From: Candidatus Moraniibacteriota bacterium
GTDB lineage: Bacteria > Patescibacteriota > Minisyncoccia > Moranbacterales > UBA11712
Reading direction: 5' to 3'
DNA: 54,090 bases
Assembly: GCA_028716005.1 (NCBI GenBank)
Contig: JAQUQQ010000002.1
Span: forward strand, 1-54,090
Shown: in pieces, positions 29,950 through 53,049 of the stretch
How positions within the stretch are numbered: the first letter of the stretch is position 1
How the letters are laid out: every line of letters begins with the position of its first letter
Position numbers and translations under genes: made by a program
Notes under the pieces: generated by a model
What the model was told of the DNA's origin: nothing
Seen by the model: the letters and a program-made list of their open reading frames with translations, nothing else
Database searches by the model: none

Positions 29950-29984
29950 GCGTTACCGGTTATGCGTTATGCGTTATGCGTTAC
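29950..29984. repeat. Heptanucleotide array, GCGTTAY family, 5 units
   Basis: gcgttac cggttat gcgttat gcgttat gcgttac; begins 5 nt after the rpoD TAG (minus-strand sense). Confidence 0.9.
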
Positions 29985-29988
29985 ACGA

Positions 29989-31272
29989 CTAATAATCCTT
30001 CAATTTATCCACCATTCCGCTCTCGCGGATTTTGTCGAGGGCTTTGGCTTCAATCTGCCGGATACGCTCGCGCGTGACCCCAAATTCGTGCCCAACTTCT
30101 TCCAAGGTATGCGTCACTCCGTCCTCAAGTCCGAACCGGATTTTGAGGATTTTTTGCTCGCGGGGCGTCAAATCCTTGAGGACCAACTCCACGTGGTCCG
30201 CCAAGAGCTTTCTGGCCGCGTTGTGGTGGGGCATCACCGTTTCTGTGTCCTCAATGAAATCGCCGAGAATTGAGTCGTCTTCGCTGTCGCCCACCGGAGT
30301 TTCGATCGAAACCGTTTCCTGTGAAATTTTCATGATGTGGCGCACTTTTTCGACTTCGATTCCCATCTCCGCCGCGATTTCTTCCGGCAACGGATCGCGC
30401 CCCAAATCCTGAACAAGACGCCGCGTGGCTTGGGTATATTTGTTGATAGTCTCAACCATGTGCACCGGAATTCGGATGGTTCGCGACTGGTCGGCCAGCG
30501 CCCGGGTGATCGCCTGGCGAATCCACCAGGTGGCGTAAGTTGAAAATTTGTATCCTTTTCGATAGTCGAACTTTTCCACCGCCCGGAAAAGCCCGATGTT
30601 CCCTTCCTGAATGAGATCGAGAAGCGACAGATTCGTGCTGCGGCCGACATATTTTTTGGCGATGGAAACAACAAGCCGCAAATTGGCTTCAGTGAGTTTT
30701 TGCTTGGCCGCCAAATCCCCTCTTTCGTTTCTTTTCGCGAGCTGCACCTCTTCTTCGCCTTTGAGAAGCGGAACCCGGCCGATTTCTCGAAGATACATCT
30801 GGACTGAATCGGAAGAAATATCGCCGAGATCCAGCGGAACATCCATGTCCTCGACTTTCTTGTCCTTGTGGTCATCTTCGTGTTCGGCGTCCTCTTTGAT
30901 CACTTCGTCGGAACTCACCACTTTCACTCCGGACTTTTCCAGTTTTTCATAGAGTTTTTCAAGCTCGGCCACATTTTTCTCCACCTCCGGGATGATCTGA
31001 AGAATTTCGTCCTCCGTGACAAACCCTCTTTGCTTTCCGAGCTTCACAAATTCGTTGAGACTCCCTTTTCCCGTCGCCTCTTCTTCTTTTCCCTTTTTGA
31101 CTGGTTTCTTCGGTGAAGAGGACTTGCCAAAACGGCCGCGCCGTTGGGCGAGCTTTTTTGATTTCCTTTTCTTCGGGACTTTCTTTTTCGGTTTCCTGAC
31201 GGCTGTTTTTTTCTTTCCAACCTTTTTCTTCACAATTTTCTTCTTCGCGTTTTTTTTCTTCTTCTTTGCCAT
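29989..31272 (-). CDS. rpoD: RNA polymerase primary sigma factor with lysine-rich N-terminal tail
   Basis: 427 aa. [33 protein letters not shown]; the N-terminal ~60 aa are mostly K/R. Confidence 0.93.
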
Positions 31273-31289
31273 AAAAACTATTTATAATA

Positions 31290-33089
31290 CTATTCAAGCT
31301 GGCTCGACAAATTTTGGAATTCCTGAAGCAACGCTTTCGCCGCTTTTTTATCGCCGGATTTCTCGGCTTCTTTTATTTTTTTGGAGAATTCAACTGTCTT
31401 TTCTTTGATCCTCATGCTTCTATGCCTTTTCAGTGATTTTTTGAGATCCTCTTCCGGAAAAGGAATTCTGTTTTCATCCCTTTCCACTTCAATTTCAAAG
31501 ACAGCCTCGTCAATCAGCCTTTGGGCTTCAAAATCAAAAACCAAGTTTTTTATTTTCTCGGAATCTTCCCCCGGCTTTTCTTTTTTGATTCTTTCGATTA
31601 TTTTTTCTGTCTTGTCTGAAAATTCTTTCGGGTCGATAGCCGCCTTTTGCCTTTCCGTCTCCCGGGGAAAAGCGAGCAGAAGGCCGATTATTCTTCTTTC
31701 CACCGCTTTTTCTTTTCCCGCGCTTTGGAAAGAAGCGTTCTCCTTTTGCCCGGCAGCCGTTTTCGGTTCGCTTTTGGCTTTTCTCAAAATTTCGACCAAG
31801 GCTCCTTCCCCGACACCCAGTTTTTCGGCCAGCTTCTTGATCCAGTGCCCCTTTTCAACGGGGTTGGAGATATCTTTCAAAACATTCAAAAGTTCTTTGG
31901 CGATTTTTTTCTTGTCGGCCGGATTTTTCGGGTCATGCCGCGAAAAGGCGTCCTCAAAGAAATATTCAACGACTTCCCGGGCCCCTTCGACCGCCTTTTC
32001 CCAAACGGCCTTGTCTTCCCGGACAACATCCGCCGCGTCCTTGCCTCTTGGCAACAGGACTATTCTAACATTCAAATCATTCTCAAGGCAAACTTTGGCG
32101 CTTCTTCTGGCCGCCGTCTGCCCGGCCGCGTCCATGTCAAAGGCCATCTTGATATTTTCCGTATAGCGCCTGATGACTTTTATCTGTTCCGGTCCGAAAG
32201 CCGTTCCGGAAACCGCTATCGTGTTTTGCAATCCCGCCTGCTGGGAAGCAATCACGTCCATGTTTCCTTCCACTAGTACGACTTCATCCCTCTTTTTGAT
32301 TTCAGTTTTGGCAAAATTGAGCCCATAAAGCACTTTGCTTTTGTCATAAAGTTCCGTCTGGGGCGTATTTATGTATTTGGCCGTTTTTTCGTCTCCGCCG
32401 GGAGCCACCCGCGCCGCAAAGCCCACCACCCGGCCCATGATGTCTTGAACCGGAAACATAATTCTATCCCTGAATCTGTCGTAAGCGTTAGTATTTGGTA
32501 TCTTGTATCTGGTATCCGGTATTTTGTTCTCGGAATCCTTTTCGACCAGCAGGCCAGTTTTAGCAATGTCCTCTATTTTATAATTTTTCTTCTGTAGAAA
32601 CTCCAGCATATTCCTCCATCCTTCCGGCGCGTAGCCGAGGCGGAATTTTTTGATTGTTTCGTCCGTGAGGCCACGTCCCCGCAAATATTTCAATATTTTG
32701 TCTTGGCCTTTTCCCTCCCAAAGATTCTTTTCATACCATTTCGCCGCGAGTTCCAAAATGTTATATAGTTTCGGCTTTGCGCTTTCTTTTTCCCTATCGC
32801 CCTTCTCAAATCTTTTCAGCTCAATTCCGGCTTTTTGGGCCAGCTGTTCAAGCGCTTCCCGAAATTCAATTCCTTCCATTTCCATCACAAAAGTGAAAAT
32901 GTCTCCGCCTTTTCCGCAGCCAAAGCAGTGAAAGCTCCGTCGCTCTTCGCTCACCATGAACGAGGGTGTTTTTTCATTATGAAAAGGACAGAGAGCCCTC
33001 CAAGCGCTCCCTGCTTTTTGAAGCCGGACATATTCGCCGACCAGATCAACGACACTTATTCTGTTTTTTATATCTTCAACGTCGGACAT
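31290..33089 (-). CDS. dnaG: DNA primase
   Basis: ORF 31290-33107 (GTG), trimmed to the ATG at 33089 (MSDVEDIKNR). CHC2 zinc finger CPFHNEKTPSF...CFGCG; TOPRIM VLVEGNMDVIA. Confidence 0.92.
   Translation of the reverse strand: MSDVEDIKNRISVVDLVGEYVRLQKAGSAWRALCPFHNEKTPSFMVSEERRSFHCFGCGKGGDIFTFVMEMEGIEFREALEQLAQKAGIELKRFEKGDREKESAKPKLYNILELAAKWYEKNLWEGKGQDKILKYLRGRGLTDETIKKFRLGYAPEGWRNMLEFLQKKNYKIEDIAKTGLLVEKDSENKIPDTRYKIPNTNAYDRFRDRIMFPVQDIMGRVVGFAARVAPGGDEKTAKYINTPQTELYDKSKVLYGLNFAKTEIKKRDEVVLVEGNMDVIASQQAGLQNTIAVSGTAFGPEQIKVIRRYTENIKMAFDMDAAGQTAARRSAKVCLENDLNVRIVLLPRGKDAADVVREDKAVWEKAVEGAREVVEYFFEDAFSRHDPKNPADKKKIAKELLNVLKDISNPVEKGHWIKKLAEKLGVGEGALVEILRKAKSEPKTAAGQKENASFQSAGKEKAVERRIIGLLLAFPRETERQKAAIDPKEFSDKTEKIIERIKKEKPGEDSEKIKNLVFDFEAQRLIDEAVFEIEVERDENRIPFPEEDLKKSLKRHRSMRIKEKTVEFSKKIKEAEKSGDKKAAKALLQEFQNLSSQLE
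32489..32523. repeat. Heptanucleotide array (GTAT family, 5 units) in frame inside dnaG
   Basis: tagtatt tggtatc ttgtatc tggtatc cggtatt; translated as NKIPDTRYKIPNT just before the conserved YDRFRDRIMFP. Confidence 0.88.
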
Positions 33090-33098
33090 TGAATTCGC

Positions 33099-33126
33099 GT
33101 GACGCACAACGCAAAACCTATAACGC
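33099..33126. repeat. Heptanucleotide array, GCGTTAY family, 4 units, inverted orientation
   Basis: gtgacgc acaacgc aaaacct ataacgc; lies 10 nt upstream of the dnaG ATG. Confidence 0.7.
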
Positions 33127-33127
33127 G

Positions 33128-33146
33128 TTTGGAAAATATTTCTAAA
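33128..33146. repeat. AT-rich hairpin between the two inverted arrays
   Basis: tttggaaa-ata-tttctaaa (8 bp including one G-T). Confidence 0.6.
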
Positions 33147-33180
33147 CGTTCTGCGTTACACGTTCTACATTACACGTTAT
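33146..33180. repeat. Heptanucleotide array, GCGTTAY family, 5 units
   Basis: acgttct gcgttac acgttct acattac acgttat; overlaps the TAA stop (33177-33179) of the next gene. Confidence 0.8.
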
Positions 33181-33449
33181 GAGAAGCTGCTCGTTTTCGC
33201 CTTGATCCCTTTGAGCCTGTTCAGCTCCTTCGCGAGCAGATCAATCTCTTTCGCCGTTCCTTCCGCCGCGACAACAATCAGCGCCAGACAATTCGAAACG
33301 CAGTGCCGCTCCACATTCACCCCGAGCCGGGCCATGATGAGCCGCCCGTTCTTCGTCAGAATCCGGTTGACGCTTGCCGAAAGGCCCTTCCGGTCGCTCA
33401 CAAAGATCGTTATGGTCGCAAGATGCAATTTTTCCTTTTTACTCGGCAT
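33177..33449 (-). CDS. TM1266-like ACT-fold small regulator (iron-only hydrogenase system regulator family)
   Basis: 90 aa. Pattern ATITIFVSDRK...VNRILTKNGRLIMARLGV...LALIVVAAEGT...LAKELNRLKGIKAKT resembles TM1266 as I recall it. Confidence 0.45.
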   Translation of the reverse strand: MPSKKEKLHLATITIFVSDRKGLSASVNRILTKNGRLIMARLGVNVERHCVSNCLALIVVAAEGTAKEIDLLAKELNRLKGIKAKTSSFS

Positions 33450-33496
33450 ACTATTACTCTAAACGATAAGAGAAAAATACTCAAATTTATTCCTTT

Positions 33497-33540
33497 TTTC
33501 CAAATTTCCCCAATTTTCCAAATCTTCCTATTTTCCAAAC
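33497..33540. repeat. 9-mer tandem array at a gene junction
   Basis: tttccaaat ttccccaat tttccaaat cttcctat tttccaaac; contains the NUDIX gene stop (33528-33530). Confidence 0.7.
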
Positions 33541-34100
33541 AGCATTTTTTTGAATTCTTTCCTGAATTTTCGGTCGTACCGCGCCCGAACCAGCGTGTTT
33601 TTGAGCTCCCCTTCATAAAAATTTTTATCTTCGCCGAGAGAAAGAAATTCGCCAAAGGTCGCCATCCTCATTTTGATTTTTTCTCCCGTATCCGGATGAG
33701 GATTCTGCTTTTTTACGCAGTCGCGGGCGACGAAATTATGAACCGTCCAGACAATTTTTCCGTAAGGATTTATTTTCTTCCAGAGTTTCCATTTTTTGGA
33801 AACGTATCCTGTTTCCTCCAGAAGTTCCCGTTTGGCCGCCTCGAGAGGCGATTCCCCTTCGTCCACTCTTCCTCCGGCCAAAGTATTTTTGTGTTTTTTC
33901 CAATCCGGCTGTTTCTGCCGGAGCAAAATTATTTTTTCTCCAACGGTGCCAATCACATTGACCGTATCGGCCCTCACGAGTTTTTCGAAAATCGCCGATC
34001 TCCCATCAAACATTTTCTGCTTCCAATGCCACACGTCAAAAATGACGCCCTTGAAAACGCGCTTGGCGTTTTTTGGAAGTTTTTTTCTTTTTCGTGACAT
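33528..34100 (-). CDS. NUDIX hydrolase
   Basis: 190 aa. Nudix box GGRVDEGESPLEAAKRELLEETGY. Confidence 0.87.
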   Translation of the reverse strand: MSRKRKKLPKNAKRVFKGVIFDVWHWKQKMFDGRSAIFEKLVRADTVNVIGTVGEKIILLRQKQPDWKKHKNTLAGGRVDEGESPLEAAKRELLEETGYVSKKWKLWKKINPYGKIVWTVHNFVARDCVKKQNPHPDTGEKIKMRMATFGEFLSLGEDKNFYEGELKNTLVRARYDRKFRKEFKKMLFGK

Positions 34101-34107
34101 AGATAAT

Positions 34108-34482
34108 TTATGATTTCCAGAGCCCGTGCAGGTTGCAATATTCCCGCGCAGTGATGTCTTCCGCCTCGACGCAAAATTCGGCCTCGGGAGCGTCTCCCGG
34201 TTTCAAATATTTCCGATAGGCTTTTCCATCTGCGAGAATTTCGATCCATTCGATATAGTGGGCTTCCTCCATCGGATGCGGCACCGACCCGACTTTCACT
34301 CTGACGCCTTTTTCTGTTTTTTCTATGACGGGCACGTGTTTTTCAACCGCCGCGTCAACCGTATTCTCGATTTGCCGAGCCATCGGCTCGCCGCAACAAA
34401 CGAGCTCCCCTCCGCCCGGATGCAATACCTCGACAATATTCCCGCACTTGGCGCATTTGTAGATTTGGTTTTGTTCGGTCAT
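34108..34482 (-). CDS. dfx: Desulfoferrodoxin (2Fe superoxide reductase)
   Basis: 124 aa. Centre I CAKCGN...CCGEPM; centre [24 protein letters not shown]. Confidence 0.9.
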
Positions 34483-34701
34483 ATATTTGGTTCAGTGATT
34501 ACGTTCTTTATTACTCTAACCTCGTCCAGTTTATTTCTCAACTTCCTCACTCCTATTTTTTTCTCCTAAGAGCCCATTTCGGCGATTCTCGGCACATCCC
34601 CAATTTTCGCTTTTCGAATATGCATATTCACTTGGTTGATTTTCTGACTGCTCTTGGCTGAACGCGAAACCACTCTCAGAAAAGGAGGTTTCTCATATAT
34701 G

Positions 34702-35442: not shown

Positions 35443-35454
35443 TGGATTTTTCTT

Positions 35455-35477
35455 TTCCTAATCTCCGAGATTAGGAA
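35455..35477. repeat. 23-nt palindrome TTCCTAA-N9-TTAGGAA
   Basis: ttcctaatct-ccg-agattaggaa, 13 nt upstream of the methyltransferase ATG; a sibling lies at 9976-9998. Confidence 0.75.
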
Positions 35478-35614
35478 ATTTATTTAATAAAAAATTTATC
35501 AACGTTTTTTTCTATGTATATTCCCGAAAACCGTATTTGTTCGGGGCGTTTCTTGCCCGTCAATTCCATTGAGATACTGAACTGGGTCGAGGACGGTCCT
35601 CGACTGAAATATTT

Positions 35615-36202: not shown

Positions 36203-36203
36203 A

Positions 36204-36935: not shown

Positions 36936-36945
36936 ATATATTTTT

Positions 36946-38352: not shown

Positions 38353-38353
38353 A

Positions 38354-38440: not shown

Positions 38441-38448
38441 AAATTATA

Positions 38449-39393
38449 TCAAAGTCGAGCATCTTCTCTGTACGAAGCTTGATATCTTTTTTTAAACTCT
38501 GTAAGCGAAAAATGATGTTCCTGCGTCCCATATTTCTCAATCGCGTAGCTCGCCGCGACGCTCCCGAGCCGTCCACACATTCGAAGATTATATCCCTTAT
38601 CCAATCCGACCAAAAATCCCGCCCGATACGCGTCTCCCGCCCCGGTCGGGTCTTCGATTTTTTTTGGCCGGCAGGCTTCAACCAAAATTTCCTGCCTGTC
38701 GCGGGTTTCAATTCGCGAACCTCTCTCGCTATACGTCGTCACGAGCGTTTCCGCGCGCTTCAAAATTTCTTTTTTATCCCAGCCTGCTCTTTTCTGAATC
38801 ATTTTTATTTCATAATCATTGCCGACAAGAACGTTCGCCTGGTTTATGGCTTTTCTCAATTCGCTGTCCGTGAATGCCGGAATCTGCTGCCCGGGATCAA
38901 AAATTGTTTTGACGCCAAGACCGGCGCATTGCGACAAGTGTTTCAGCATCACGCTTATTTTGGTCGGGGAAATGATTGCCCAGCGGGGCTTTTCTTCTTT
39001 TTTTCTGAATTTTATCTCCGGCGCGGAGCCGAGAGCGCCGTTATAGAACGCGGTGATCTGGTTGTCGTCGAGATCGGTTGTGATATAGCACGAAGCGGTA
39101 AACAGTTTTTTATCTGTTTCAATTCGATCACCGCTTATTTTGATATGGCTTAGATATTTCAAATACTCTCCGCCGTCTTGTCCGACTGACGAAACAATAA
39201 TCGGACTGCCGCTCAGCAATTTTATATTATACGCGATATTCCCCGCCGTCCCGCCTTTGCTTTTTTCCAATTTGTCGACAGTAAAACAGACATTCAAAAT
39301 ATGGATACTGTCCGGAAGAATATGATTTTTGAACCGGTCCGGAAAGTCCATGATATGGTCATAGACCAAGGAACCGGATACGAGAATTGGCAT
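38449..39393 (-). CDS. PfkB-family carbohydrate/nucleoside kinase (adenosine kinase candidate)
   Basis: ORF 38449-39498 trimmed to the ATG at 39393 (MPILVSGSLVYD), because the extension reads through the tRNA. GGTAGNIAYN, DPTGAGDAYRAGF. Confidence 0.8.
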   Translation of the reverse strand: MPILVSGSLVYDHIMDFPDRFKNHILPDSIHILNVCFTVDKLEKSKGGTAGNIAYNIKLLSGSPIIVSSVGQDGGEYLKYLSHIKISGDRIETDKKLFTASCYITTDLDDNQITAFYNGALGSAPEIKFRKKEEKPRWAIISPTKISVMLKHLSQCAGLGVKTIFDPGQQIPAFTDSELRKAINQANVLVGNDYEIKMIQKRAGWDKKEILKRAETLVTTYSERGSRIETRDRQEILVEACRPKKIEDPTGAGDAYRAGFLVGLDKGYNLRMCGRLGSVAASYAIEKYGTQEHHFSLTEFKKRYQASYREDARL

Positions 39394-39408
39394 ATTGTTA
39401 TTTTTAGT

Positions 39409-39496
39409 TGGCGGAAGGGGAGGGATTCGAACCCTCGATACCTTGCGGTATACCCGCTTTCCAAGCGAGCGCACTCGGCCTCTATGCGACCCTTCC
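39409..39496 (-). tRNA. tRNA-Ser (anticodon GGA), CCA encoded
   Basis: Hand-folded 88 nt. Acceptor GGAAGGG/CCCTTCC, D stem GCA/TGC, anticodon stem CTCGC/GCGGG with loop TTGGAAA, long variable arm TATACCGCAAGGTATC, T arm GAGGG-TTCGAAT-CCCTC, then GCCA. Confidence 0.88.
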
Positions 39497-39789
39497 ATTA
39501 TTTTTTATCAACTGCTCAAACGCATTGCCGCCCTTATACGATTTTATCTTTTTCTCCCTCCTCATCGCTTCCTTTTTATCTGAAAATTTTTCTGTATGCA
39601 CAAGCCTAAACGGACGCCGTTTTCTTGTCGATATATTTCTGCCTTCATTATGAAACTTCAAACGCATTTCGACATTACCTGTGTACCCTATATAATAACG
39701 ACCGTCTTTCTTGCTTTGAATTATATAAACATAGTACATAACTTTCCAACCCCGCCGTGGCGGGGACTCGGCCTCTATGCGACCCTTCC
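39473..39789 (-). mobile_element. GIY-YIG cassette bounded by an exact 24-nt duplication of the tRNA-Ser 5' end
   Basis: actcggcctctatgcgacccttcc occurs at 39473-39496 and 39766-39789. GC hairpin ccccgcc/ggcgggg at 39750-39765. Confidence 0.5.
39482..39739 (-). CDS. GIY-YIG nuclease-family small protein
   Basis: 85 aa. MYYVYIIQSKKDGRYYIGYTGNVEMRLKFHNEG...REKKIKS; its last 15 nt, including the TAG, overlap tRNA positions 1-15. Confidence 0.8.
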   Translation of the reverse strand: MYYVYIIQSKKDGRYYIGYTGNVEMRLKFHNEGRNISTRKRRPFRLVHTEKFSDKKEAMRREKKIKSYKGGNAFEQLIKNNGRVA

Positions 39790-42332: not shown

Positions 42333-42698
42333 TTTTATTTTTTTTAATCCGCAGATCAATTTGTGTGCTACAATTGTTTGATTCGCAATTCTACTAAAAT
42401 CTTCTTTTTGCAAATAGCCCACATCCCGTGCAACAGTTAACTGATTCTGAAGTTCAGTCAAAGAGCCTAACGCTATGGCATAAAATTGTAATTTTTCTTT
42501 GATTGTATTCCGGCTAAAACCCTCTGCGATGTTAGAAGTTATAGAAACAACGCAACGCCTCATCTGAATAGTTAATCCGAAAAGTTCTTCTTTAGGAAAA
42601 TTTTTTGTAACTTCATAAACTAAAAGGACGAGTTTATGTCCTTCTCGCCAAGCATTTAAATCTGTGAAAGATTTTATTTTACTTCCCTCCTTAATCAT
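42324..42698 (-). CDS. Four-helix-bundle protein (23S rRNA intervening-sequence protein family, TIGR02436-like)
   Basis: 124 aa. FTDLNAWREGHKLVLLVYEVTKNFPKEELFGLTIQMRRCVVSITSNIAEGFSR...LQFYAIALGSLTELQNQL. Confidence 0.82.
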   Translation of the reverse strand: MIKEGSKIKSFTDLNAWREGHKLVLLVYEVTKNFPKEELFGLTIQMRRCVVSITSNIAEGFSRNTIKEKLQFYAIALGSLTELQNQLTVARDVGYLQKEDFSRIANQTIVAHKLICGLKKIKNT

Positions 42699-42730
42699 AC
42701 ACTATACGCTATACAAAATACACTATACAC
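42696..42730. repeat. Heptanucleotide array, GTAT family (ATAC orientation), 5 units
   Basis: catacac tatacgc tatacaa aatacac tatacac; the first 3 nt are the start codon of the four-helix-bundle gene, and the last nt begins the pyk TAG. Confidence 0.85.
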
Positions 42731-44208
42731 TAAGAAATTTCCTCTACCTTCACCAAACTCATATGCTCTTTTTTCATGTGCGGGCGTCCGGCGACAATCA
42801 CCACTTTGTCTTTTCTTTTCAGCAGCTTGTTTTTTTTGAGAGTGGCGATTGATTTGTCCAGAAGTTCGTCCAAATCCCGGCAATCCGGAAGAACGAAACT
42901 TTCCGCTCCCCAGACCAAGGTGAGCTGATTGTGAGTTTTTTCTCGGTTGGTCATCACGAATAATCTCTCTTCCGACCGGTGCCGGGCAATTACTCGAGCC
43001 GTAAAACCAGAAACGCTGGCGGCAACAATGGCTTTGGCCCCGCTGTCCTTCACGAGTTCGTGGGCTGATTGGGCAATTGCTGACGAAACTGACATTTTTT
43101 CATCGCTCAAAAATCCATGCTCGAGGTCGTCAAAAGGAGACTCCTCTGTTTTTTCAATTATTTTTCTCATCATCCTGACAGCTTCCACCGGATATTTCCC
43201 GCTGGCTGTTTCCCCCGAAAGCATCACGGCGTCCGCGTGATCAATGACCGCGTTTGAAACGTCCGTCACTTCCGCTCGCGTCGGACGAGGATTCCGGATC
43301 ATGGAGTCGAGCATCTGGGTGGCCACAATGGCCGGCTTTCCGGCTCGCAAGGCTTTCGCTACCATTTCCTTTTGAAGAATGGGGAGTTCTTCCTGGGGCA
43401 TTTCAATTCCCAAATCTCCCCGGGCAACCATAATCGCGTCGGAAACTTTGAGGATTTCATTGAAATTTTTGACTGCCTCCCTTCTTTCAATTTTTGCGAC
43501 CACCTGGGGAATCCTTTTTTCGTCGGATATTTTTTTTCTTATCAATTGCTGGAGATCTTTTATTTCTTTCGCGTTCCGGACAAAAGACATGGCCACAAAA
43601 TCCGCGTCTTGAGAAAGAGCAAAATCCAAAACTTCTTTGTCCTGGCTCGTCAGCGCCCCAAGTTTCGCCGAAATTCCCGGAATATTGACTCCTTTCCTCA
43701 TTTTGATGACCCCGTCGTTTTCAGCGCGACAATGCAAACATTTTTTATCTTTTTTGAAAACCGAGAGCTTGATCAGACCGTCTTCAACCAAAATTTCATT
43801 GCCTACTTTGACAAGCTTCGTCACTTCGGGAAGATCAAGAAAAATGTTTTTCTGCCGGCCACTTTTTTTTGCAAATCTGCGGTTTCTGCCAGCTACCAGC
43901 AAAGTTTCACCTTTTTTGACTTTCACTTCCCGGTTCCCGATTGTTCTGATCCTTGGCCCTTGAAGATCGGCCATTATTCCGATTGGCTTTCTGATTTTTC
44001 GGCTCACCTCGCGGATACTCTTGATTGCTCTTTTATGAGACGCGAAATCTCCGTGCGAAAAATTGAGCCGGGCAACATCCATTCCCTCCCTTGCCATCTG
44101 CCGAAGCACTGATTTTTTTTCTGAAGCCGGACCGATGGTGGCAATTATTTTGGTTCTCTTTCCGCCAGAGGCGGATCCGCCTTTGGCGGACATTCCATCA
44201 TTTGTCAT
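42730..44208 (-). CDS. pyk: Pyruvate kinase
   Basis: ORF 42730-44220 (TTG). More likely ATG at 44208 or 44193. KIIATIGPAS, MVARGDLGIE, C-terminal regulatory domain. Confidence 0.9.
   Translation of the reverse strand: MTNDGMSAKGGSASGGKRTKIIATIGPASEKKSVLRQMAREGMDVARLNFSHGDFASHKRAIKSIREVSRKIRKPIGIMADLQGPRIRTIGNREVKVKKGETLLVAGRNRRFAKKSGRQKNIFLDLPEVTKLVKVGNEILVEDGLIKLSVFKKDKKCLHCRAENDGVIKMRKGVNIPGISAKLGALTSQDKEVLDFALSQDADFVAMSFVRNAKEIKDLQQLIRKKISDEKRIPQVVAKIERREAVKNFNEILKVSDAIMVARGDLGIEMPQEELPILQKEMVAKALRAGKPAIVATQMLDSMIRNPRPTRAEVTDVSNAVIDHADAVMLSGETASGKYPVEAVRMMRKIIEKTEESPFDDLEHGFLSDEKMSVSSAIAQSAHELVKDSGAKAIVAASVSGFTARVIARHRSEERLFVMTNREKTHNQLTLVWGAESFVLPDCRDLDELLDKSIATLKKNKLLKRKDKVVIVAGRPHMKKEHMSLVKVEEIS
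44161..44190. repeat. Twin 15-nt hairpin GC element, copy inside the pyk 5' end
   Basis: tccgcc-aga-ggcgga tccgcc-ttt-ggcgga; translated as SAKGGSASGG at the pyk N-terminus. Confidence 0.85.
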
Positions 44209-44658: not shown

Positions 44659-44716
44659 AAATTCACCTCGCTTTCTTTTTTATTTTGTAGAATTAGTTCG
44701 CTGATACAATTATACA

Positions 44717-45607: not shown

Positions 45608-45612
45608 AAAAT

Positions 45613-45778
45613 TAAAATCCTAAATTCTAAACACTAAATCCCAAACAAATTCTCAGCCAGAGGCTGATCCGCCTTTGGTGGAAAATTATCAAAATTCAAA
45701 TGACCAAACTACTTTTGACTTTCGTCATTTCGAATTTTGATATTATTTAGGATTTCGAAATTAGGATTTAGGATTTTG
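45613..45778. mobile_element. MITE-like composite: inverted CTAAATY heptad arrays flanking a twin hairpin and an AATGAC hairpin
   Basis: Left taaaatc ctaaatt ctaaaca ctaaatc ccaaaca (45613-45647). Twin hairpin at 45653-45682. aaatgac...gtcattt. Right tatttag gatttcg aaattag gatttag gattttg (45744-45778). Confidence 0.45.
45653..45682. repeat. Twin 15-nt hairpin GC element
   Basis: tcagcc-aga-ggctga tccgcc-ttt-ggtgga. Confidence 0.85.
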
Positions 45779-45782
45779 ATAA

Positions 45783-46355
45783 CTAAAATTCAACTTTGAC
45801 CGCTCCCTTTTCGCCTTCCGCTGCTTCAAAAAACTCCCGGGCAGAGAATCCCAGCATTCCGGCAAAAATATTGTTTGGGAAGACTTGGATCTTTGTGTTG
45901 AAGTCGCGCACATTGCCGTTATAGAATCTTCGCGAGGCCTGGATTTTGTCTTCCGTATCCGCGAGTTCCCGCTGGAGCTCCAAAAAGTTCTGGTTGGCTT
46001 TGAGGTCGGGATAGTTTTCCGCAACCGCGAAAAGGCTTTTGAGGGTCTGCGAAAGCATATTTTCCGCTTGCGCCTTGTCCCCCGCGCTCTGGGCTCCCAT
46101 TGCCCTGGTTCGGGCTTCGGTCACTTTCTCAAAAACTTCCTTTTCATGGCTGGCGTATCCTTTCACCGTCGAAACCAGGTTCGGGATGAGGTCATACCGC
46201 CTTTTCAGCTGGACATCAATGTCGCTCCAAGCTTCGTCTACCCGGTTTTTGAGCCGGATGAGCCCGTTATAGACCGCAATCGCCCAAAGAACCAGGACGA
46301 CGATTATCCCCAATATTACCCACATAAACATGGATTTTTTGTTAATAATTACCAA
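45783..46355 (-). CDS. lemA: LemA family protein
   Basis: 190 aa from a TTG; the ATG at 46331 (MFMWVILG) is the more likely start. YNGLIRLKNRVDEAWSDIDVQLKRRYDLIPNLV. Confidence 0.85.
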   Translation of the reverse strand: MVIINKKSMFMWVILGIIVVLVLWAIAVYNGLIRLKNRVDEAWSDIDVQLKRRYDLIPNLVSTVKGYASHEKEVFEKVTEARTRAMGAQSAGDKAQAENMLSQTLKSLFAVAENYPDLKANQNFLELQRELADTEDKIQASRRFYNGNVRDFNTKIQVFPNNIFAGMLGFSAREFFEAAEGEKGAVKVEF

Positions 46356-46387
46356 AAAAAGCTATTTCAACTTATCTCGCGGAATTT

Positions 46388-47377: not shown

Positions 47378-47432
47378 GATGAAATAATAACATAAAACGA
47401 AATTTTAGGCCACTGCCAGCAACCCGATATTC

Positions 47433-47504
47433 ACCCCGCACCACAATAAACATTGTTCCAGCCAATTATTATAAAATCAAAAATATCGGATTGTGGTGCG
47501 GGGT
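47433..47504. repeat. 15-bp GC-rich inverted repeat around a 42-nt AT-rich loop
   Basis: accccgcaccacaat (47433-47447) / attgtggtgcggggt (47490-47504). A crossing 7-bp pair ccgatat (47424-47430) / atatcgg (47483-47489) is also present. Confidence 0.75.
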
Positions 47505-47568
47505 TCCTTTCTCCTTTCATAAAAAAAGAAAATTTGCGAAAAATATGCTGTTTTGGTAAAATTCATCC

Positions 47569-48012
47569 ATGGACTGGAAAAACTATATAGTCATAATCGT
47601 TCCAATCGCCGTCGGGCTTTTCACTCAAGCTTTGAAATTTTTTCTTTATTCACTGAAGCACGGATTCAGGTGGGAATATGCCTTCACGCATGGCCACATG
47701 CCCAGCGCTCATACGGCTTTCGTCATTTCAACTCTCACGAGTATCGGCTATTTTGAAGGAACAACCTCCGGAGTTTTCGCTCTCGCTTTCATCTTTGCTT
47801 TTATTATTATTGACGATGCTGTGCGCCTCCGGGTATTTCTCGGAGACCAGGGAAGATACCTCAACATGCTGGTTGATCAGCTCCCCGTAGACAAGAAAAA
47901 ATTCCCTCGCCTGAAAGAGAGAATCGGCCATCGCATTTCCGAAGTTATTGCTGGCGGCGCTATTGGTCTTATTTTTTCATTTGTTCTGATAAAATTTCTC
48001 GAATCACTCTAG
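47569..48012 (+). CDS. Divergent PAP2 family protein (DUF212)
   Basis: 147 aa. HGHMPSAHTAFVISTLTSIG, IIIDDAVRLR. Confidence 0.75.
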   Translation: MDWKNYIVIIVPIAVGLFTQALKFFLYSLKHGFRWEYAFTHGHMPSAHTAFVISTLTSIGYFEGTTSGVFALAFIFAFIIIDDAVRLRVFLGDQGRYLNMLVDQLPVDKKKFPRLKERIGHRISEVIAGGAIGLIFSFVLIKFLESL

Positions 48013-49267
48013 GGTCGTTCCAGGGAATCCTTTTTGCGCCGACTACCATTATCTCTTCCGCCCCTTTCCCGGTGACGGCGACTATATCTCCCGACTTTGC
48101 AATCTGCAAGGCTTTTTTGATGGCTTCGCGACGATCAAATATCCGCCAGGCATTTTCGTTTTCTTTTTTGTGTTTCAAAACTCCAGCAAAAACTTCGTCA
48201 ATAATTTTTTGAGGATCTTCATTATACGGATCTTCATTGGTGACAAAACAATAGTCAGCATGTCGCGCCACAATTTCTCCCATAATCGGCCTCTTGCCCC
48301 GGTCTCTTTCTCCGCAAGAGCCAAAGACGGCGATTATTTTCGCGTTTTCTTTTTTTAGCTTGTTTATATAATTATATAATTTTTCGAGCGAATCCGGTGT
48401 CACGGCGAAATCAACAATGATTTCGAGTCCCCGGTCATTCTCAATATGCTCCATCCTGCCGGACACGCCTTTTATTTTCGCGAGAGCCTGTGAAATTTTC
48501 GGCAGCGCTATATTTTGTGAAAGTCCCACGCACGTCGCGGCCAAAGCGTTTTCGACATTAAATTCCCCCGGCAAATTAATTTGGAAGCTAGTATCTTGTA
48601 TTTGGTATTTGGTATTTTCTGTCCCTAGTTCAATGTTTTCGGAAATAATTTCGTGGAACGTATTGAACTGTGTTATGCGTTCTACGTTACGCGTTGCAAG
48701 ATGATATCCGTATTTATCTTTTACTCCATACTTTAAAAAATCCTCTGCTTTTTCCATTGCTAAATTAACCACTGTTGCTCCATTTATATTCTTCGCTGTC
48801 ATCGCAAATAGCTTTTCTTTCGCTTTCGCATACTTTTCCATCGTTTCGTGGTAATCAAGATGTTCCCGCGTTAAATTCGTTATCGCCGCCACATCGAAAT
48901 CGGTGCCCCAGACGCGGTTTTGGTCAAGTGAATGCGAAGATATTTCGAGAACGGCATAACTGCAACCCGCTTTAACGGCTTCGCTCAGATGTCTTTGCAA
49001 TCGCCAGCTGGAAAGCGTCGTAAACTTTGTGTCGTTCACCCATTCTTTTTCGCCGATCTTGAAATTTATGGTCGAGGCTACGGCGACCTTGTCGCCGGCC
49101 TCTTCCAGAATTTTGGCTATCATCTGCACCGTCGTCGTTTTGCCGTTCGTTCCCGTCACTCCTATAGCTTTCAATTTCCTTGACGGAAAACCATGCCAAA
49201 CATTCGCGAGAACCGCTTGGAAAAGATGATATATGTTTTTGACGGATTGGGGAATGATCTTTTTCAC
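47969..49267 (-). CDS. murE: Mur ligase, MurE-like (UDP-MurNAc-tripeptide synthetase)
   Basis: 432 aa. IGVTGTNGKTTT, LEISSHSLDQNRV, NLTREHLDYH, DRREAIKKAL...GKG. The 3' end overlaps the convergent PAP2 gene by 44 nt. Confidence 0.82.
   Translation of the reverse strand: MKKIIPQSVKNIYHLFQAVLANVWHGFPSRKLKAIGVTGTNGKTTTVQMIAKILEEAGDKVAVASTINFKIGEKEWVNDTKFTTLSSWRLQRHLSEAVKAGCSYAVLEISSHSLDQNRVWGTDFDVAAITNLTREHLDYHETMEKYAKAKEKLFAMTAKNINGATVVNLAMEKAEDFLKYGVKDKYGYHLATRNVERITQFNTFHEIISENIELGTENTKYQIQDTSFQINLPGEFNVENALAATCVGLSQNIALPKISQALAKIKGVSGRMEHIENDRGLEIIVDFAVTPDSLEKLYNYINKLKKENAKIIAVFGSCGERDRGKRPIMGEIVARHADYCFVTNEDPYNEDPQKIIDEVFAGVLKHKKENENAWRIFDRREAIKKALQIAKSGDIVAVTGKGAEEIMVVGAKRIPWNDPRVIREILSEQMKK
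48589..48616. repeat. Heptanucleotide array (GTAT family, 4 units) in frame inside murE
   Basis: tagtatc ttgtatt tggtatt tggtatt; translated as NTKYQIQDT. Confidence 0.85.
48670..48697. repeat. Heptanucleotide array (GCGTTAY family, 4 units) in frame inside murE
   Basis: gtgttat gcgttct acgttac gcgttgc; translated as ATRNVERITQ. Confidence 0.8.
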
Positions 49268-49343
49268 CCCGTTAGAAATAATATTTAATGATTTTATTTT
49301 CTTGTTAAATTTCTATCTCCCGTTAGTGGATTTCTAGCGAGGT

Positions 49344-50378
49344 TCACGGCTTTATTCTTCTTAGTGTTTTATATATCCAATATTTCGTGGGATTCAAGAT
49401 TATATCATAGCATCCAGGAAATTCAATAGTCCTTGTCTCCGGCGCAAAGCCGGTTTTGAATTTTGTGATTCCTGCCCAGTTTTTGTATTTAGTATTTGGT
49501 ATCTGGTATTTGGTATTTACTCCTCCGAGATCGTATTTTATACAGCCATTCTTTTTTGCATCGATAATCGTTTGCCATTGGAGAAGATACGGCGCCATCG
49601 CATCGCGATGCGCGTTATCCGACGCCCCGTGCATATACGTCGCCGTTTTTCCAAAAAACAAAACCAAGTTCGCGGCAATAATTTTCCCCTCATATTCGGC
49701 AGCATATAGTTTCAAAATTTCCGGTGGAATTGTTTCGAACATTTTTCGATAATAGTTTTCGGGATGTGCCGTAATCTTATCCCGCTGACTGGTGATTTTC
49801 ACTAGTCTCAAAAACTCTTCGATATTTTCCTGCGCTATACGTTCCACGTTATGCGTTATGCGAACGCCTTTCTTTTGAGAAAGGCGAATATTGTACCGCG
49901 TTTTCTGCTTCATTCCTGCCAAAATTTCTTCTTCGCTCTTCGAAATATCCAAAACCAATATTTCCCTCGGCTGCATATTCACCGGTGATTTTTTCATTTT
50001 TTTCTCTTTCGACAGACTTTCTTTTATCATCTCCAATCCTTCCGCGCTATTCGGCTCAACCCGAATCCAACCAACATTATTTTCTTTCGACAGACTAATT
50101 AAATTATCAAGAAAAATTTTTATTTTCCTCTCCGCGTTTTGCGTTATGCGTTTTGCGTTGTGCGTTACCGGTCCCCGTGGCACATAAAAATAATTCCCAA
50201 CAAGAGGAAGCGAATGCGCTATCGCATATGCATATATGAAAGCATTGCCATTTTCCTTTTCCTCCAGCTCAAAAGTTTTTCGACCGACACTTTCCTGAAA
50301 CTTCCGCCAATAAACTGATTGCAAAAAGCCCCCATGAGGGGAATTTTGTTGAACAAAATCAAAAAAATTCTTCTCCAT
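49344..50378 (-). CDS. femX: FemAB-family peptidoglycan bridge-forming aminoacyltransferase
   Basis: ORF 49344-50420 trimmed to the ATG at 50378 (MEKNFFDFVQQ), because the extension is encoded by a heptad array. FLQSVYWRKFQ, YMHGASDN...APYLLQW, KFKTGF. Confidence 0.8.
   Translation of the reverse strand: MEKNFFDFVQQNSPHGGFLQSVYWRKFQESVGRKTFELEEKENGNAFIYAYAIAHSLPLVGNYFYVPRGPVTHNAKRITQNAERKIKIFLDNLISLSKENNVGWIRVEPNSAEGLEMIKESLSKEKKMKKSPVNMQPREILVLDISKSEEEILAGMKQKTRYNIRLSQKKGVRITHNVERIAQENIEEFLRLVKITSQRDKITAHPENYYRKMFETIPPEILKLYAAEYEGKIIAANLVLFFGKTATYMHGASDNAHRDAMAPYLLQWQTIIDAKKNGCIKYDLGGVNTKYQIPNTKYKNWAGITKFKTGFAPETRTIEFPGCYDIILNPTKYWIYKTLRRIKP
49483..49517. repeat. Heptanucleotide array (GTAT family, 5 units) in frame inside femX
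   Basis: ttgtatt tagtatt tggtatc tggtatt tggtatt; translated as NTKYQIPNTKYK. Confidence 0.9.
49832..49866. repeat. Heptanucleotide array (GCGTTAY family, 5 units) in frame inside femX
   Basis: gcgctat acgttcc acgttat gcgttat gcgaacg; translated as RITHNVERIAQ. Confidence 0.85.
50134..50168. repeat. Heptanucleotide array (GCGTTAY family, 5 units) in frame inside femX
   Basis: gcgtttt gcgttat gcgtttt gcgttgt gcgttac; translated as VTHNAKRITQNAE. Confidence 0.9.
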
Positions 50379-50412
50379 ATACCAAATACTAGATACTAAA
50401 TACCAGATACTA
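50378..50412. repeat. Heptanucleotide array, GTAT family, 5 units, filling the ruvA-femX junction
   Basis: tatacca aatacta gatacta aatacca gatacta; the last 3 nt are the ruvA TAG, and the first nt is the last base of the femX ATG. Confidence 0.9.
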
Positions 50413-50979
50413 CTTCCCAAGATTCTTGAGCGCCGCCCGCACTCTCTCTGAAATGTCTTTTATTTTTTCTGGAACATTTTTCAAGGCTTCACGAGACTGG
50501 GTATTCGTGTATCCTAACGAAATCAGCGCTTCTATCGCTTCGGAATCGGCTTTAGCCGAACCTCCATCTTCCCCCGGAAGCTCAATGATACGATTCTTGA
50601 GTTCAAGGATCACCCGCTCGGCCGTCTTTTTTCCAACTCCCGAAACGCGCGTCAGAATCGATGAATCGCCCGATATCACCGCCGCCCGAATTGTTTTCGG
50701 CTCCGCGATGGAAAGGATTCCCATCGCAGCTTTCGGCCCGATTCCGGAAATGGAGATGAGCAGTTCAAACATTTCGAGTTCATCCAGAACCAAAAACCCG
50801 TAAAGCGACAGAGTGTCCTCGCGAACATAGGTATGGGTGTATAATTCTATTTCCTCTTTCCCGGCGATTTTCCCCATTGTAAAATCAGTGACGAATATCT
50901 TGTATCCGACTCCGGAAACGTCCACGATGACGTAGCTGTCGCGAAAAAAAGCGATTTTTCCTGTTATTTTGGCAATCAT
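50410..50979 (-). CDS. ruvA: Holliday junction DNA helicase subunit RuvA
   Basis: 189 aa. MIAKITGKI..., two HhH motifs (ISGIGPKAAMGIL, VSGVGKKTAERV). Confidence 0.92.
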   Translation of the reverse strand: MIAKITGKIAFFRDSYVIVDVSGVGYKIFVTDFTMGKIAGKEEIELYTHTYVREDTLSLYGFLVLDELEMFELLISISGIGPKAAMGILSIAEPKTIRAAVISGDSSILTRVSGVGKKTAERVILELKNRIIELPGEDGGSAKADSEAIEALISLGYTNTQSREALKNVPEKIKDISERVRAALKNLGK

Positions 50980-50983
50980 ATGT

Positions 50984-51018
50984 TTGTATCTAGTATATAG
51001 TATCTGGTATTTGGTATA
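50984..51018. repeat. Heptanucleotide array, GTAT family, 5 units
   Basis: ttgtatc tagtata tagtatc tggtatt tggtata; begins 5 nt upstream of the ruvA ATG. Confidence 0.88.
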
Positions 51019-51120
51019 TTTTTACAATACCTCGCGACTATTTACAAAAATAACTAACTGTGTTAGAAATATAGAGTGTTTTCAACCATTTTAAATTTTC
51101 AATTGTAATTTTTAATTTTT

Positions 51121-51150
51121 TCAGCCAAAGGCTGATCCGCCTCGGGAGGA
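51121..51150. repeat. Twin 15-nt hairpin GC element
   Basis: tcagcc-aaa-ggctga tccgcc-tcg-ggagga; lies between the divergent ruvA and rpsT. Confidence 0.85.
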
Positions 51151-51183
51151 CATTTTAAATTTTACACTTGAGCGATAGCGAAC

Positions 51184-51450
51184 ATGCCAATCAAGCAGAG
51201 TGCGAAGAAGTATCTGCGCGCCTCAACAAAACGGACCGCGCAAAATCTTTCGATCAAAAAAGATTTCCGAGACGCGGCGAAGAAACTCAACGAACTCGCG
51301 AAAGCCGGAAAAATTGAGGATGCCAAAAAAATGTTCCCGACCGTCCAGAAAGCCCTCGACAAAGCCGCCAAAGTCGGCGTCATCGCCAAAAACACCGCCG
51401 CCCGAAAAAAATCGCGGTTGGTGAAGATGATGAAAAAAGCAACGAAATAG
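51184..51450 (+). CDS. rpsT: 30S ribosomal protein S20
   Basis: 88 aa. MPIKQSAKKYLRASTKRTAQNLSIKK... Confidence 0.92.
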   Translation: MPIKQSAKKYLRASTKRTAQNLSIKKDFRDAAKKLNELAKAGKIEDAKKMFPTVQKALDKAAKVGVIAKNTAARKKSRLVKMMKKATK

Positions 51451-51466
51451 TTTGTCCGGATATTGA

Positions 51467-51496
51467 AAAGCCCCGACGTATGCCGGGGCTTTTTTT
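51467..51496. terminator. Bidirectional terminator
   Basis: aaaagccccg-8 nt-cggggctttttt; the GNAT TAA stop lies in the T-run. Confidence 0.85.
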
Positions 51497-51944
51497 ACTT
51501 CTTCTTCAATTTCCTTCTATAAACGCTCGTATCTCTTCTATCAAATTTCAGTTTTTTATAAAATTTATGGGATTCGGCACGATCATTACGACTGGAGAGA
51601 TCAACGTGCTTGGCGCCGTTTTTCTTGGCCCGGGATATCATATGGCTTATTATTCTCTTCCCGTGCCCTTTTCTTCGATGTTCCGGACAAACAACGACAT
51701 CTTCAATCCATGCCGATTTTTTTACAAGAGTTTCAAAATAGTGAAGGCTTCCCATGCCAATTATATCTTTTCCAAACTCCAACAGATATATCTCTAAAAG
51801 ATGGTTATTCAATAACTCCCGAAATCTCTTCTTGTTGACTGTATAATTGTTTGGTGATAAATGCCCTAACAAATTATTGATTGAGCTAATCAACTCATTC
51901 GTCAGTTCCGCATTTCTCTGAATTTTATATATCTTGTGTTTCAT
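51495..51944 (-). CDS. GNAT family N-acetyltransferase
   Basis: 149 aa. VVVCPEHRRKGHGKRIISHMISRAKKNG. Confidence 0.85.
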   Translation of the reverse strand: MKHKIYKIQRNAELTNELISSINNLLGHLSPNNYTVNKKRFRELLNNHLLEIYLLEFGKDIIGMGSLHYFETLVKKSAWIEDVVVCPEHRRKGHGKRIISHMISRAKKNGAKHVDLSSRNDRAESHKFYKKLKFDRRDTSVYRRKLKKK

Positions 51945-51975
51945 TTTGCGTTATGCGTTATTTGTTGCGCGGATC
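51941..51975. repeat. Heptanucleotide array, GCGTTAY family (degenerate ends), 5 units, filling the holA-GNAT junction
   Basis: tcatttt gcgttat gcgttat ttgttgc gcggatc; GNAT ATG at 51942-51944, holA TGA at 51974-51976. Confidence 0.65.
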
Positions 51976-52960
51976 AAACTCCCGCAATGAACTTATCCAG
52001 CGCCAATCCAACCTCAACTTTTCCCGTTTTCGCTTCGAAATCAATTTTGCAGAGATTGTTATACAACTTTTTTAGCTCGGCCAGCGAGAAATTTCTCCCT
52101 TGCTCGACGCTTTTTCGGGCGACATAAGGATGAATCTTGAGCTTGGCGGAAATTTCATGCGGCGGCGCGTTTTTTTCCGCAAGCGGTTTCACTTTGAGAA
52201 GGTTCCGGAACTGGAAAAAATACATTGAAAGAAGATAATAGGGATCTTCACCCGCCTCGAGATGATCGTGGAGCAGTTTCACGGCTGATTTTTTGTCTCC
52301 GCGGGCCATCGCGTCGATTGTTTCGAAAATATCCGTGTCAATTTTCGATTTCACGAGAAGTTCGACATCTTCTTCGGAAATTTCTCCTTTGCCCCTGAAG
52401 GCAACCAATTTTTCGATTTCTTTTGAGAGAAGCGCGAGATTGTTCCCGACAAAAATTGAAAGTTTCCCGGCGGCTTTTGGGCTGATGGATACTTTGTCTT
52501 CCCCAACTTGCCCGCCGAAGCCTTGGCAAAGGCGGGTCTCTTCAATCACCCAACTTTTCAGTTTCACTCCATCCAAAAGGCCGAACTCCTGTTTTTTCGA
52601 TTTTTCAAGAAGAAATTTCGTCAGCTTCAATTTTTTGTCGATTTTTTCTTTTTCCCAAAATACGAAGGTGAGATCTTTCATTTCTCCCTTTTCCGCCTTT
52701 TTTAGAAAACCGAGAAGCTCCAAATCTTGCGCCGCTGTTTTATTTTGAAGAATGTTTTTCACGATTGCCAATTTTTTGTTCGAAAACAATCCACCCGAAG
52801 AAAGCTTGATGAGCATTTCATTGATTTTTTCTGTCGGTTCGGCAAAGTCAAAAACAAAAAGGGTGCTGCCCTCTTTGTAATTTTGGAGAAATTTGTCTTT
52901 TACCTCGGCGAGTTTCCGGTTCGATCGAAATTCATCCTCGCCATATAGAAAAATTATCAT
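51974..52960 (-). CDS. holA: DNA polymerase III delta subunit
   Basis: 328 aa. MIIFLYGEDEF..., overall HolA-like layout; weak family, called by pattern. Confidence 0.72.
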   Translation of the reverse strand: MIIFLYGEDEFRSNRKLAEVKDKFLQNYKEGSTLFVFDFAEPTEKINEMLIKLSSGGLFSNKKLAIVKNILQNKTAAQDLELLGFLKKAEKGEMKDLTFVFWEKEKIDKKLKLTKFLLEKSKKQEFGLLDGVKLKSWVIEETRLCQGFGGQVGEDKVSISPKAAGKLSIFVGNNLALLSKEIEKLVAFRGKGEISEEDVELLVKSKIDTDIFETIDAMARGDKKSAVKLLHDHLEAGEDPYYLLSMYFFQFRNLLKVKPLAEKNAPPHEISAKLKIHPYVARKSVEQGRNFSLAELKKLYNNLCKIDFEAKTGKVEVGLALDKFIAGV

Positions 52961-53014
52961 GGAACGTGAAATGCTGAACCCAAAGCGCCAATGATTTTAT
53001 TTTTGGTTATGTTT

Positions 53015-53049
53015 TCGTTCCACGTTGTGCGCTATGCGTTACGCGACTA
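53015..53049. repeat. Heptanucleotide array, GCGTTAY family, 5 units
   Basis: tcgttcc acgttgt gcgctat gcgttac gcgacta; the last 3 nt are the TAG of the DUF3048 gene. Confidence 0.8.

Follow-up and report, generated by a model that had tools for sequence, protein, structure and literature searches.

Why should the stop codons of several genes in one bacterial genome be followed by short runs of the heptanucleotide GCGTTAY, and why should runs of the same unit also lie within genes? The question is raised by a 54,090-nt stretch of a contig from Candidatus Moraniibacteriota (here called the window), in which such runs are found at rpoD, murE, femX, holA and neighbouring genes. In the sense strand, which defines the unit register used here, the consensus of the unit is ATAACGC. 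According to the original prediction, the runs after genes would serve as a backstop that ends translation in all three frames, and the copies inside genes have lost exactly the TAA that falls in frame. Our analysis leads to a different picture. The GCGTTAY runs are probably one unit family among heptanucleotide tandem-repeat arrays, of the STRR or long simple sequence repeat (SSR) kind, which pervade this genome and those of its relatives. The three-frame stop codons look like arithmetic and not like a selected safety device, and the tests made gave no sign of selection for them.

The host is an ultra-small bacterium of the Candidate Phyla Radiation (CPR). Proteins from Candidatus Moranbacteria (Moraniibacteriota) share 49-70 % identity with its FemX, the closest relative, at 70 %, being a member of this group, and the gene order DUF3048-holA-GNAT-rpsT-ruvA-femX-murE-LemA-HtpX is common to the window and its Moranbacteria relatives. 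Gene names were checked by Pfam. Two samples were used: 281 kb of Moranbacteria sequence, consisting of the window and 14 Moranbacteria loci, and 120 metagenome contigs (GC content 30-71 %) containing a perfect (GCGTTAY)3. Single loci are referred to by L numbers. Genes of the metagenome contigs were called with our own self-trained codon-usage caller, with which the database calls for L129 were reproduced. Arrays were detected by Tandem Repeats Finder and by our own scan of periods 4-12, and they contained 2-5.4 copies of the unit.

GCGTTAY runs and other heptanucleotide arrays

As the original prediction held, the GCGTTAY runs are real: two-unit matches occur 18 times in the window compared to 0.69 expected, and none of 100 shuffled sequences reached 18. 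The nine sites that they form all lie within 23 kb (p = 5e-4 under uniform placement), a clustering which fits local spread. Period 7 is, moreover, favoured well beyond this one unit. The window contains 20 period-7 arrays and at most five arrays of any other period, and the Moranbacteria sample contains 97, compared to 2-25 for the other periods. Arrays of many different 7-nt units are thus far commoner than arrays of other periods. Fifty of the 97 are within genes, and the remaining 47 are in the 11.5 % of the sequence that is non-coding, where arrays are thus enriched. Of the 20 period-7 arrays of the window, 15 lie at positions 29950-53049, as do all the GCGTTAY sites, and positions 1-29949 have almost none. 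In this second part of the window rpsT and the DUF212 gene are the only genes that are not on the minus strand.

One unit family can recur at many dispersed sites, the window having eight arrays of the type NNAACGY and about eight of an ATAC type. In this second large family every unit contains ATAC or GTAT, and its arrays occur in dnaG, murE and femX, in the ruvA-femX spacer, before ruvA, and at 14619 and 42697. Near-identical copies of an array are also present at unrelated sites of one genome. The array at 33099-33126 is identical at 25 of 28 positions to the array at site 1 of femX and has the same unit order (TAA-CAA-AAA-TAA), and the array at femX site 3 has 18 identical bases in common with the array before ruvA. 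In a relative, the femX and murE loops (L002:1085-1155 and L002:2493-2563) have about 50 nt in common with about 85 % identity, a stretch that includes aperiodic sequence and encodes TQNSK.KAQSQSAK in both genes. The arrays occupy short intergenic spacers, where they touch stop and start codons, and a few flexible surface loops of conserved enzymes, namely those of FemX, MurE, DnaG and Fpg. The two adjacent arrays at 42697-42732, for example, fill the 31-nt spacer from the pyruvate kinase gene to the next gene and overlap both the stop and the start codon.

Several kinds of bacterial repeat are comparable. The STRR heptanucleotide repeats of heterocystous cyanobacteria are grouped here with the long SSRs. 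The small dispersed repeats of Nostoc, said to have been described by Elhai et al. in 2008, are reportedly near-identical copies of about 20-50 nt at unrelated sites, genes included; unlike them, the arrays described here have no hairpin core, no defined ends were noticed in the flanks that were read, though these were not searched systematically, and the internal structure is a heptamer array. Among the long simple repeats of prokaryotes those with heptanucleotide units are the commonest, with slippage as the proposed origin, and long simple repeats in coding sequence usually have units divisible by three (Mrazek et al. 2007, as summarised in PMC4679880). As far as that summary describes the long SSRs, they share with the present arrays a preference for period 7, genome-specific dominant units and the proposal of slippage, but their coding units are usually multiples of three, whereas here 7-nt units are common inside genes. 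The TAACTGA repeats of Beggiatoaceae, cyanobacteria and Bacteroidetes (MacGregor 2015, PMC4679880) are likewise tandem 7-nt units in 2-6 copies, many of them in spacers. In the forward orientation they too have stops in three frames, sometimes overlapping the stop codon of the gene, and they often end a few nucleotides before a start codon; they are translated as 7-residue repeats in the reverse orientation. However, one heptamer dominates there and many unit families are present here, and the TAACTGA repeats are mostly intergenic, whereas half of the present arrays are inside conserved enzymes at fixed loops. In addition, the coding copies here are in the stop-bearing orientation with a changed in-frame slot, and the lineage is a different one. 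Borg repeats (PMC9879509) are similarly pervasive and A-rich, about half of them in genes, where they encode flexible hydrophilic segments or disordered regions, but their units within genes are always divisible by three and nearly all unique, in contrast to the 7-nt families shared between sites here.

Our search of a library of papers for heptamer repeats in Moranbacteria, Patescibacteria or Parcubacteria gave no paper linking heptamer arrays to the CPR. We could not find a description for the CPR of the pattern seen here, i.e. arrays read in three frames within conserved enzymes, the use of the same FemX loops, copying between sites and a high density in envelope genes. If this pattern holds genome-wide, it offers a handle on protein-loop and surface variation in streamlined genomes, and it is also relevant to the long-standing problem of the bacterial preference for repeats of 7 nt. 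They are also a practical warning, since such arrays can frameshift gene calls and break CPR assemblies.

Stop codons within and beside the arrays

Seven leaves a remainder of one when divided by three, and a run of 7-nt units is therefore read in all three frames, so that TAA comes to stand in every frame if the unit contains it. This relation accounts for the stops in three frames, a property already noted for the TAACTGA repeats (PMC4679880). Most of what the original prediction built on this property was narrower when the arrays were analysed unit by unit. Of its nine arrays eight were confirmed, and the site at 49605-49618 in femX proved to be a single unit. Four arrays had been thought to follow stop codons with TAA in all three frames, but the rpoD array alone does so. 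Its first TAA is 5 nt past the TAG stop (29989-91), and it is unpaired in the predicted fold, between the stop and a terminator hairpin (29913-29935) which was visible by folding and had been missed by a consensus terminator scan. The array after the DUF3048 gene contains one TAA and one TAG. In the array at 33146-33179 the first unit itself provides the stop of the TM1266-like gene (TAA at 33177-79), and two units of this array, although non-coding, are GAA variants.

The slots at which the stop codon would stand show the claim that coding copies have lost exactly the in-frame TAA to be an overstatement. The three in-frame coding units contain neither TAA nor another stop and are, as had been stated, GAA in murE, GAA in femX and AAA in femX. 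Among the nine out-of-frame coding units, however, TAA is present in six and another stop in none, and three are non-stop, so the loss of T is not confined to in-frame units; at femX site 1, two out-of-frame slots are also non-TAA. The 20 non-coding units contain TAA in 12 cases, another stop in two (TAG, TGA) and no stop in the remaining six (30 %; GAA, CAA and AAA).

A shared orientation had also been proposed, and eight of the nine sites do share it (nominal p = 0.04), but nearly all genes of the region are encoded on the minus strand, and among the non-coding arrays taken by themselves the count is four of five (p = 0.38). In the metagenome contigs, the non-coding perfect GCGTTAY arrays were TAA-sense in 46-50 and TTA-sense in 35-38 cases over three gene-length cut-offs (p = 0.19-0.27), an orientation indistinguishable from random, although in other organisms. 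Arrays were also present between divergent genes of these contigs, and 12 or 13 perfect arrays lay deep within reading frames in the opposite sense. Whether the array at 33099-33126 refutes an orientation rule was considered, but a better explanation of its orientation is that it forms one side of a hairpin and is copied between this site and femX.

It is thus highly improbable, in our view, that the arrays are a selected translational backstop, kept after genes to stop readthrough or frame-shifted ribosomes, even though each of the four genes followed by an array has all three frames closed within 22-40 nt. The median distance to closure was 73.5 nt among the 28 genes closing within 150 nt, the four included, and 22 genes never closed within 150 nt. 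A role of this kind could also draw on the TAA-sense orientation of most non-coding arrays in the window, on the slight, non-significant excess of the same sense in the metagenome loci, and on the 17 arrays there that provide the stop codon of a reading frame. The arrays themselves, however, give TAA in three frames by their own units in one case of four, and other heptamer families in the same kind of spacer have no systematic stops. The heptamer families are many, and their two strands are alike: in 18 intergenic arrays between co-directional genes of the Moranbacteria sample, stops were present in none, one, two and three of the sense frames in 3, 1, 10 and 4 arrays, respectively, and in none, two and three of the antisense frames in 5, 11 and 2 arrays. 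Non-coding arrays touch start codons as often as stop codons, the distance being 12 nt or less to a start in 25 of 62 cases and to a stop in 15 of 33. The absence of a stop from almost a third of the non-coding units, the lack of a significant orientation bias and the tolerance of the unit family inside genes also argue against a backstop, and frame-shifted ribosomes usually reach out-of-frame stops inside the gene in any case. Tandem stop codons that back up the primary stop are in-frame single codons found in statistical excess. The arrays resemble these in that extra stops follow soon after the real one, but they owe their stops to a repeat which is also found before starts and inside genes and of which the stops are a by-product.

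Array copies in protein loops

That the array-derived coding copies are translated, as the original prediction also claimed, is supported by alignments and by structure prediction. In FemX and MurE one frame is open through each array, and conserved blocks flank it on both sides; the arrays themselves fall in stretches that are highly variable among orthologues. In an AlphaFold model of FemX (mean pLDDT 92.5) the sole low-confidence blocks, residues 71-80, 171-180 and 291-300, correspond to the three array sites. The peptide [IVA][TS][HCRYQ]N[ATMVISK]-x-[RH] was found in 19 of 120 FemX homologues, and in all 23 cases the residue x at the stop slot was Q, E or K, with codons one step from TAA. 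Peptides of the array type include VTHNAKRITQNAER, RITHNVER and NTKYQIPNTK.

The stop-slot rule therefore holds beyond the window, yet it could not be otherwise and is no discovery: a TAA at the in-frame slot would close the reading frame. The changed slots had been presented as direct evidence of purifying selection, but as such they are weaker than was stated. The same variant units are found in non-coding arrays, and as the array at 33099-33126 is a copy of that at femX site 1, the stop-free frame of a coding array may come from its source copy.

The same three FemX loop sites bear arrays of other units in relatives whose FemX is only 60-70 % identical. In the window the units at sites 1, 2 and 3 are AACGCAN, CGCATAA and AAATACC, respectively. 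The closest relative (L129) has TTATGAA, a perfect (CGCGCAA)4.4 at site 2 and (AAATCTC)4.6, and other relatives have AAATTCC (L003), AATTTTC (L004) or AACTCAA (L002 and L133). Growth of the femX loops in steps of seven residues, corresponding to three units, was considered and rejected, as the loop-length distributions show no clean steps of seven. A different element, CHPE(Q/L)V(L/S)GSDSEM(L/P)KQV(Q/R)HD, is short and is inserted in the same variable loops of FemX (twice in L005) and of MurE in L005 and L006.

In the Moranbacteria sample the A-rich strand of coding arrays was the sense strand in 40 cases compared to 6 for the opposite (p = 3e-7), whereas non-coding arrays between co-directional genes gave a ratio of 15:14. 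Thirty-one of the 50 coding arrays had no stops in any sense frame, and the mode of coding array length was 30-32 nt. By the genetic code, ATAACGC encodes I-T-H-N-A-x-R, which is hydrophilic and suited to loops, and GCGTTAT would encode A-L-C-V-M-R-Y. The orientation bias, limited to coding arrays, can be explained by selection for hydrophilic loop residues. The hydrophilic reading of ATAACGC likewise accounts for the stop-bearing orientation of the coding copies in the window, and no transcription-linked signal is needed.

Origin and possible uses of the arrays

In the history that we consider likely, arrays would lengthen and shorten by strand slippage in 7-nt steps, would be homogenised or copied between sites via ectopic conversion or template switching, and would persist where harm is small. 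Within genes only versions with a stop-free frame would survive, which would leave CAA, GAA or AAA at the slot, and the sense strand would tend to be the A-rich one. It is probable that some non-coding arrays have acquired a use, for example in hairpins or in the ruvA leader, separately from any role of their stop codons.

Several observations weigh against such a largely neutral history. The evidence for slippage is one indirect case, an fpg gene (L132:5856-6709) which is split in two frames exactly at (AAAGTCA)3.4 (6101-6124) and in which one more unit restores the frame. The split could mark a genuine variant or a pseudogene, or result from an assembly error, and a frameshift scan gave one further case, unrelated to arrays. 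As with defined ends, neither a target duplication nor an associated enzyme was noticed in the flanks that were read, though the search there was not systematic. Pure neutrality would not lead one to expect that coding arrays are 15-20-fold denser in femX (1.22 per kb) and murE (0.93) than in other genes (0.06; p = 5e-20, window and 14 relatives). Neither does it predict that in independent metagenome contigs 10 of 16 array-bearing frames encode GT4, MurG or PBP proteins (in L031, L082, L084, L088, L093, L106 and L110), compared to none of 19 control frames chosen at random from the array-less reading frames of the same contigs (p = 4e-5). The sequence of the array before ruvA is kept in L001:6608-6641, L129:8904-8937 and L134:9333-9367, and more weakly in L135, L130 and L004, i.e. 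across species with FemX 60-70 % identical, which is also not expected from neutrality. The quick closure of frames after the four array-followed genes belongs here as well. Furthermore, the orientation in the window is entangled with strand or replication direction in the organism itself, and the metagenome gene calls come from a home-made caller.

The conservation before ruvA suggests that this array may belong to the promoter or leader of ruvA, and the arrays more generally could be regulatory RNA or DNA elements, either unstructured A-rich leaders or protein sites in a 7-nt register (of a cold-shock or S1-like protein), with inverted pairs that would terminate or process transcripts. For several arrays the distance to the next start codon is 0-7 nt, without an intervening Shine-Dalgarno sequence, and inverted pairs fold strongly. 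The arrays at 33099-33126 and 33146-33179 pair over about 34 bp to give a hairpin (-30.5 kcal/mol, z = -2.85 for the fold of 33085-33185), the hairpin in the LemA-HtpX spacer reaches -62.3 kcal/mol (z = -8.8), and in L135 the hairpin of the same spacer is made from a different unit, AACTTGA (z = -4.4). The same proposal has been made for the TAACTGA repeats (MacGregor 2015, PMC4679880). Regulation as the general explanation nevertheless seems on balance unlikely to us, since it leaves the coding arrays, half of the total, unexplained, the units differ between species at the same spacer, and the binding protein is purely hypothetical. Conservation before ruvA could, moreover, reflect an ordinary promoter. 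A comparison of the window with Rfam gave one tRNA only and no family matching the arrays.

The density in envelope genes would be expected if the arrays were contingency loci, in which the change of one unit switches an envelope enzyme on or off, or steps of three units alter loop length, leading to surface diversification in an episymbiont. Heptanucleotide repeats drive phase variation in Haemophilus influenzae, where they are present in the hmw promoters and in reading frames (PMC2651432). As here, the 7-nt units are in promoters and surface-related genes, and frameshifts result from changes in unit number. The tracts of H. influenzae, however, have 6-38 perfect copies and demonstrated strain variation, whereas the present arrays have about four copies and are often degenerate. 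The perfect arrays of relatives (4.3 units) and the fpg gene frameshifted at its array would fit contingency, as would the excesses in femX and murE and in the GT4, MurG and PBP genes. We regard it as distinctly improbable all the same: arrays of about 4.3 units are short, those of the window are degenerate, and several occur per gene at conserved structural loops instead of one tract near the 5' end. Their lengths are tightly clustered at the in-frame 30-32 nt, all but one of about 47 coding arrays keep the frame, and murE and dnaG are normally essential. A broader proposal is an actively maintained array system, with copying between sites, fixed loops, envelope enzymes (FemX, MurE, MurG, GT4, PBP) that are switched or retuned by unit changes, and leaders or hairpins in spacers. 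This we consider rather unlikely; if it were true, it would be a contingency or diversification mechanism of ultra-small episymbiotic bacteria based on 7-nt units.

The features of the window are collected in Table 1.

Table 1 Heptanucleotide arrays and associated genes of the window, with array units written in the sense register
Feature	Position	Strand	Remarks
GCGTTAY array, five units	29950..29984	minus	GTAACGC ATAACGC ATAACGC ATAACCG GTAACGC; rpoD 3' untranslated region
Array in opposite orientation	33099..33126	plus	plus strand reads GTGACGC ACAACGC AAAACCT ATAACGC; spacer before dnaG
GCGTTAY array, five units	33146..33179	minus	ATAACGT GTAATGT AGAACGT GTAACGC AGAACGT
Array inside murE	48670..48697	minus	GCAACGC GTAACGT AGAACGC ATAACAC; peptide ATRNVERIT; in-frame slot GAA
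Single ATAACGC unit in femX, no array	49605..49618	minus	unit register
Array, femX loop site 2	49839..49862	minus	ATAACGC ATAACGT GGAACGT; peptide RITHNVER; in-frame slot GAA
Array, femX loop site 1	50134..50168	minus	GTAACGC ACAACGC AAAACGC ATAACGC AAAACGC; peptide VTHNAKRITQNA; in-frame slot AAA
Two-unit array, 29-nt holA-GNAT spacer	51947..51961	minus	12 nt past holA TGA; 3 nt before GNAT ATG
Degenerate array after DUF3048 gene	53015..53042	minus	GTAACGC ATAGCGC ACAACGT GGAACGA; 5 nt past TAG stop
ATACCNN (sense) array inside dnaG	32488..32522	minus	peptide KIPDTRYKIPNT
Two adjacent heptamer arrays	42697..42732	minus	plus strand ATACACT/ATACGCT; sense GTATAGC... and TAGTGTA...
LemA-HtpX spacer hairpin	45608..45785	minus	arms are inverted arrays (AAATCCT)n and (AGGATTT)n
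AAATACC-family array inside murE	48588..48617	minus	peptide NTKYQIQDT
AAATACC-family array, femX loop site 3	49481..49518	minus	peptide NTKYQIPNTKYK
GTATNNN array filling ruvA-femX spacer	50375..50410	minus	last unit provides femX ATG (50376-78)
ATAC-family array, divergent rpsT/ruvA spacer	50986..51017	minus	6 nt upstream of ruvA ATG
rpoD	29989-31272	minus	Pfam
dnaG	31290-33107	minus	Pfam
TM1266-like gene	33177-33449	minus	Pfam
murE, Mur ligase	47969-49267	minus	Pfam
femX, FemAB-family	49344-50378	minus	Pfam; product 344 aa
GNAT gene	51495-51944	minus	Pfam
holA	51974-52960	minus	Pfam
DUF3048 gene	53047-54084	minus	Pfam

The gene names given in the original prediction were correct. The LemA-HtpX spacers were compared in L004, L133 and L135. 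Reverse transcriptase genes adjoin the syntenic block in two relatives: a bAvd and RVT_1 pair resembling a diversity-generating retroelement in L130 (17231-18672) and an RVT_1 gene in L132 (12370-14085). A palindromic mini-element, GGCGGATCAGCCTYTGGCTGA, is present in spacers of the window at 45653-45673 and 51121-51141, with a variant at 44161-44190 in the 5' end of the pyruvate kinase frame. The same element lies inside murE in L004 (11643-11663), where it is read as PPKADQPLAE, and similar peptides are found in FemX loops of other homologues. The tRNA gene at 39412-39496 (minus strand) overlaps the 5' end of a naive frame at 38449-39498, the start of which is probably downstream, at MPILVSG. 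Finally, the N-terminus of RpoD (window 31150-31272) has a lysine-rich extension of about 65 residues ahead of region 1.1.

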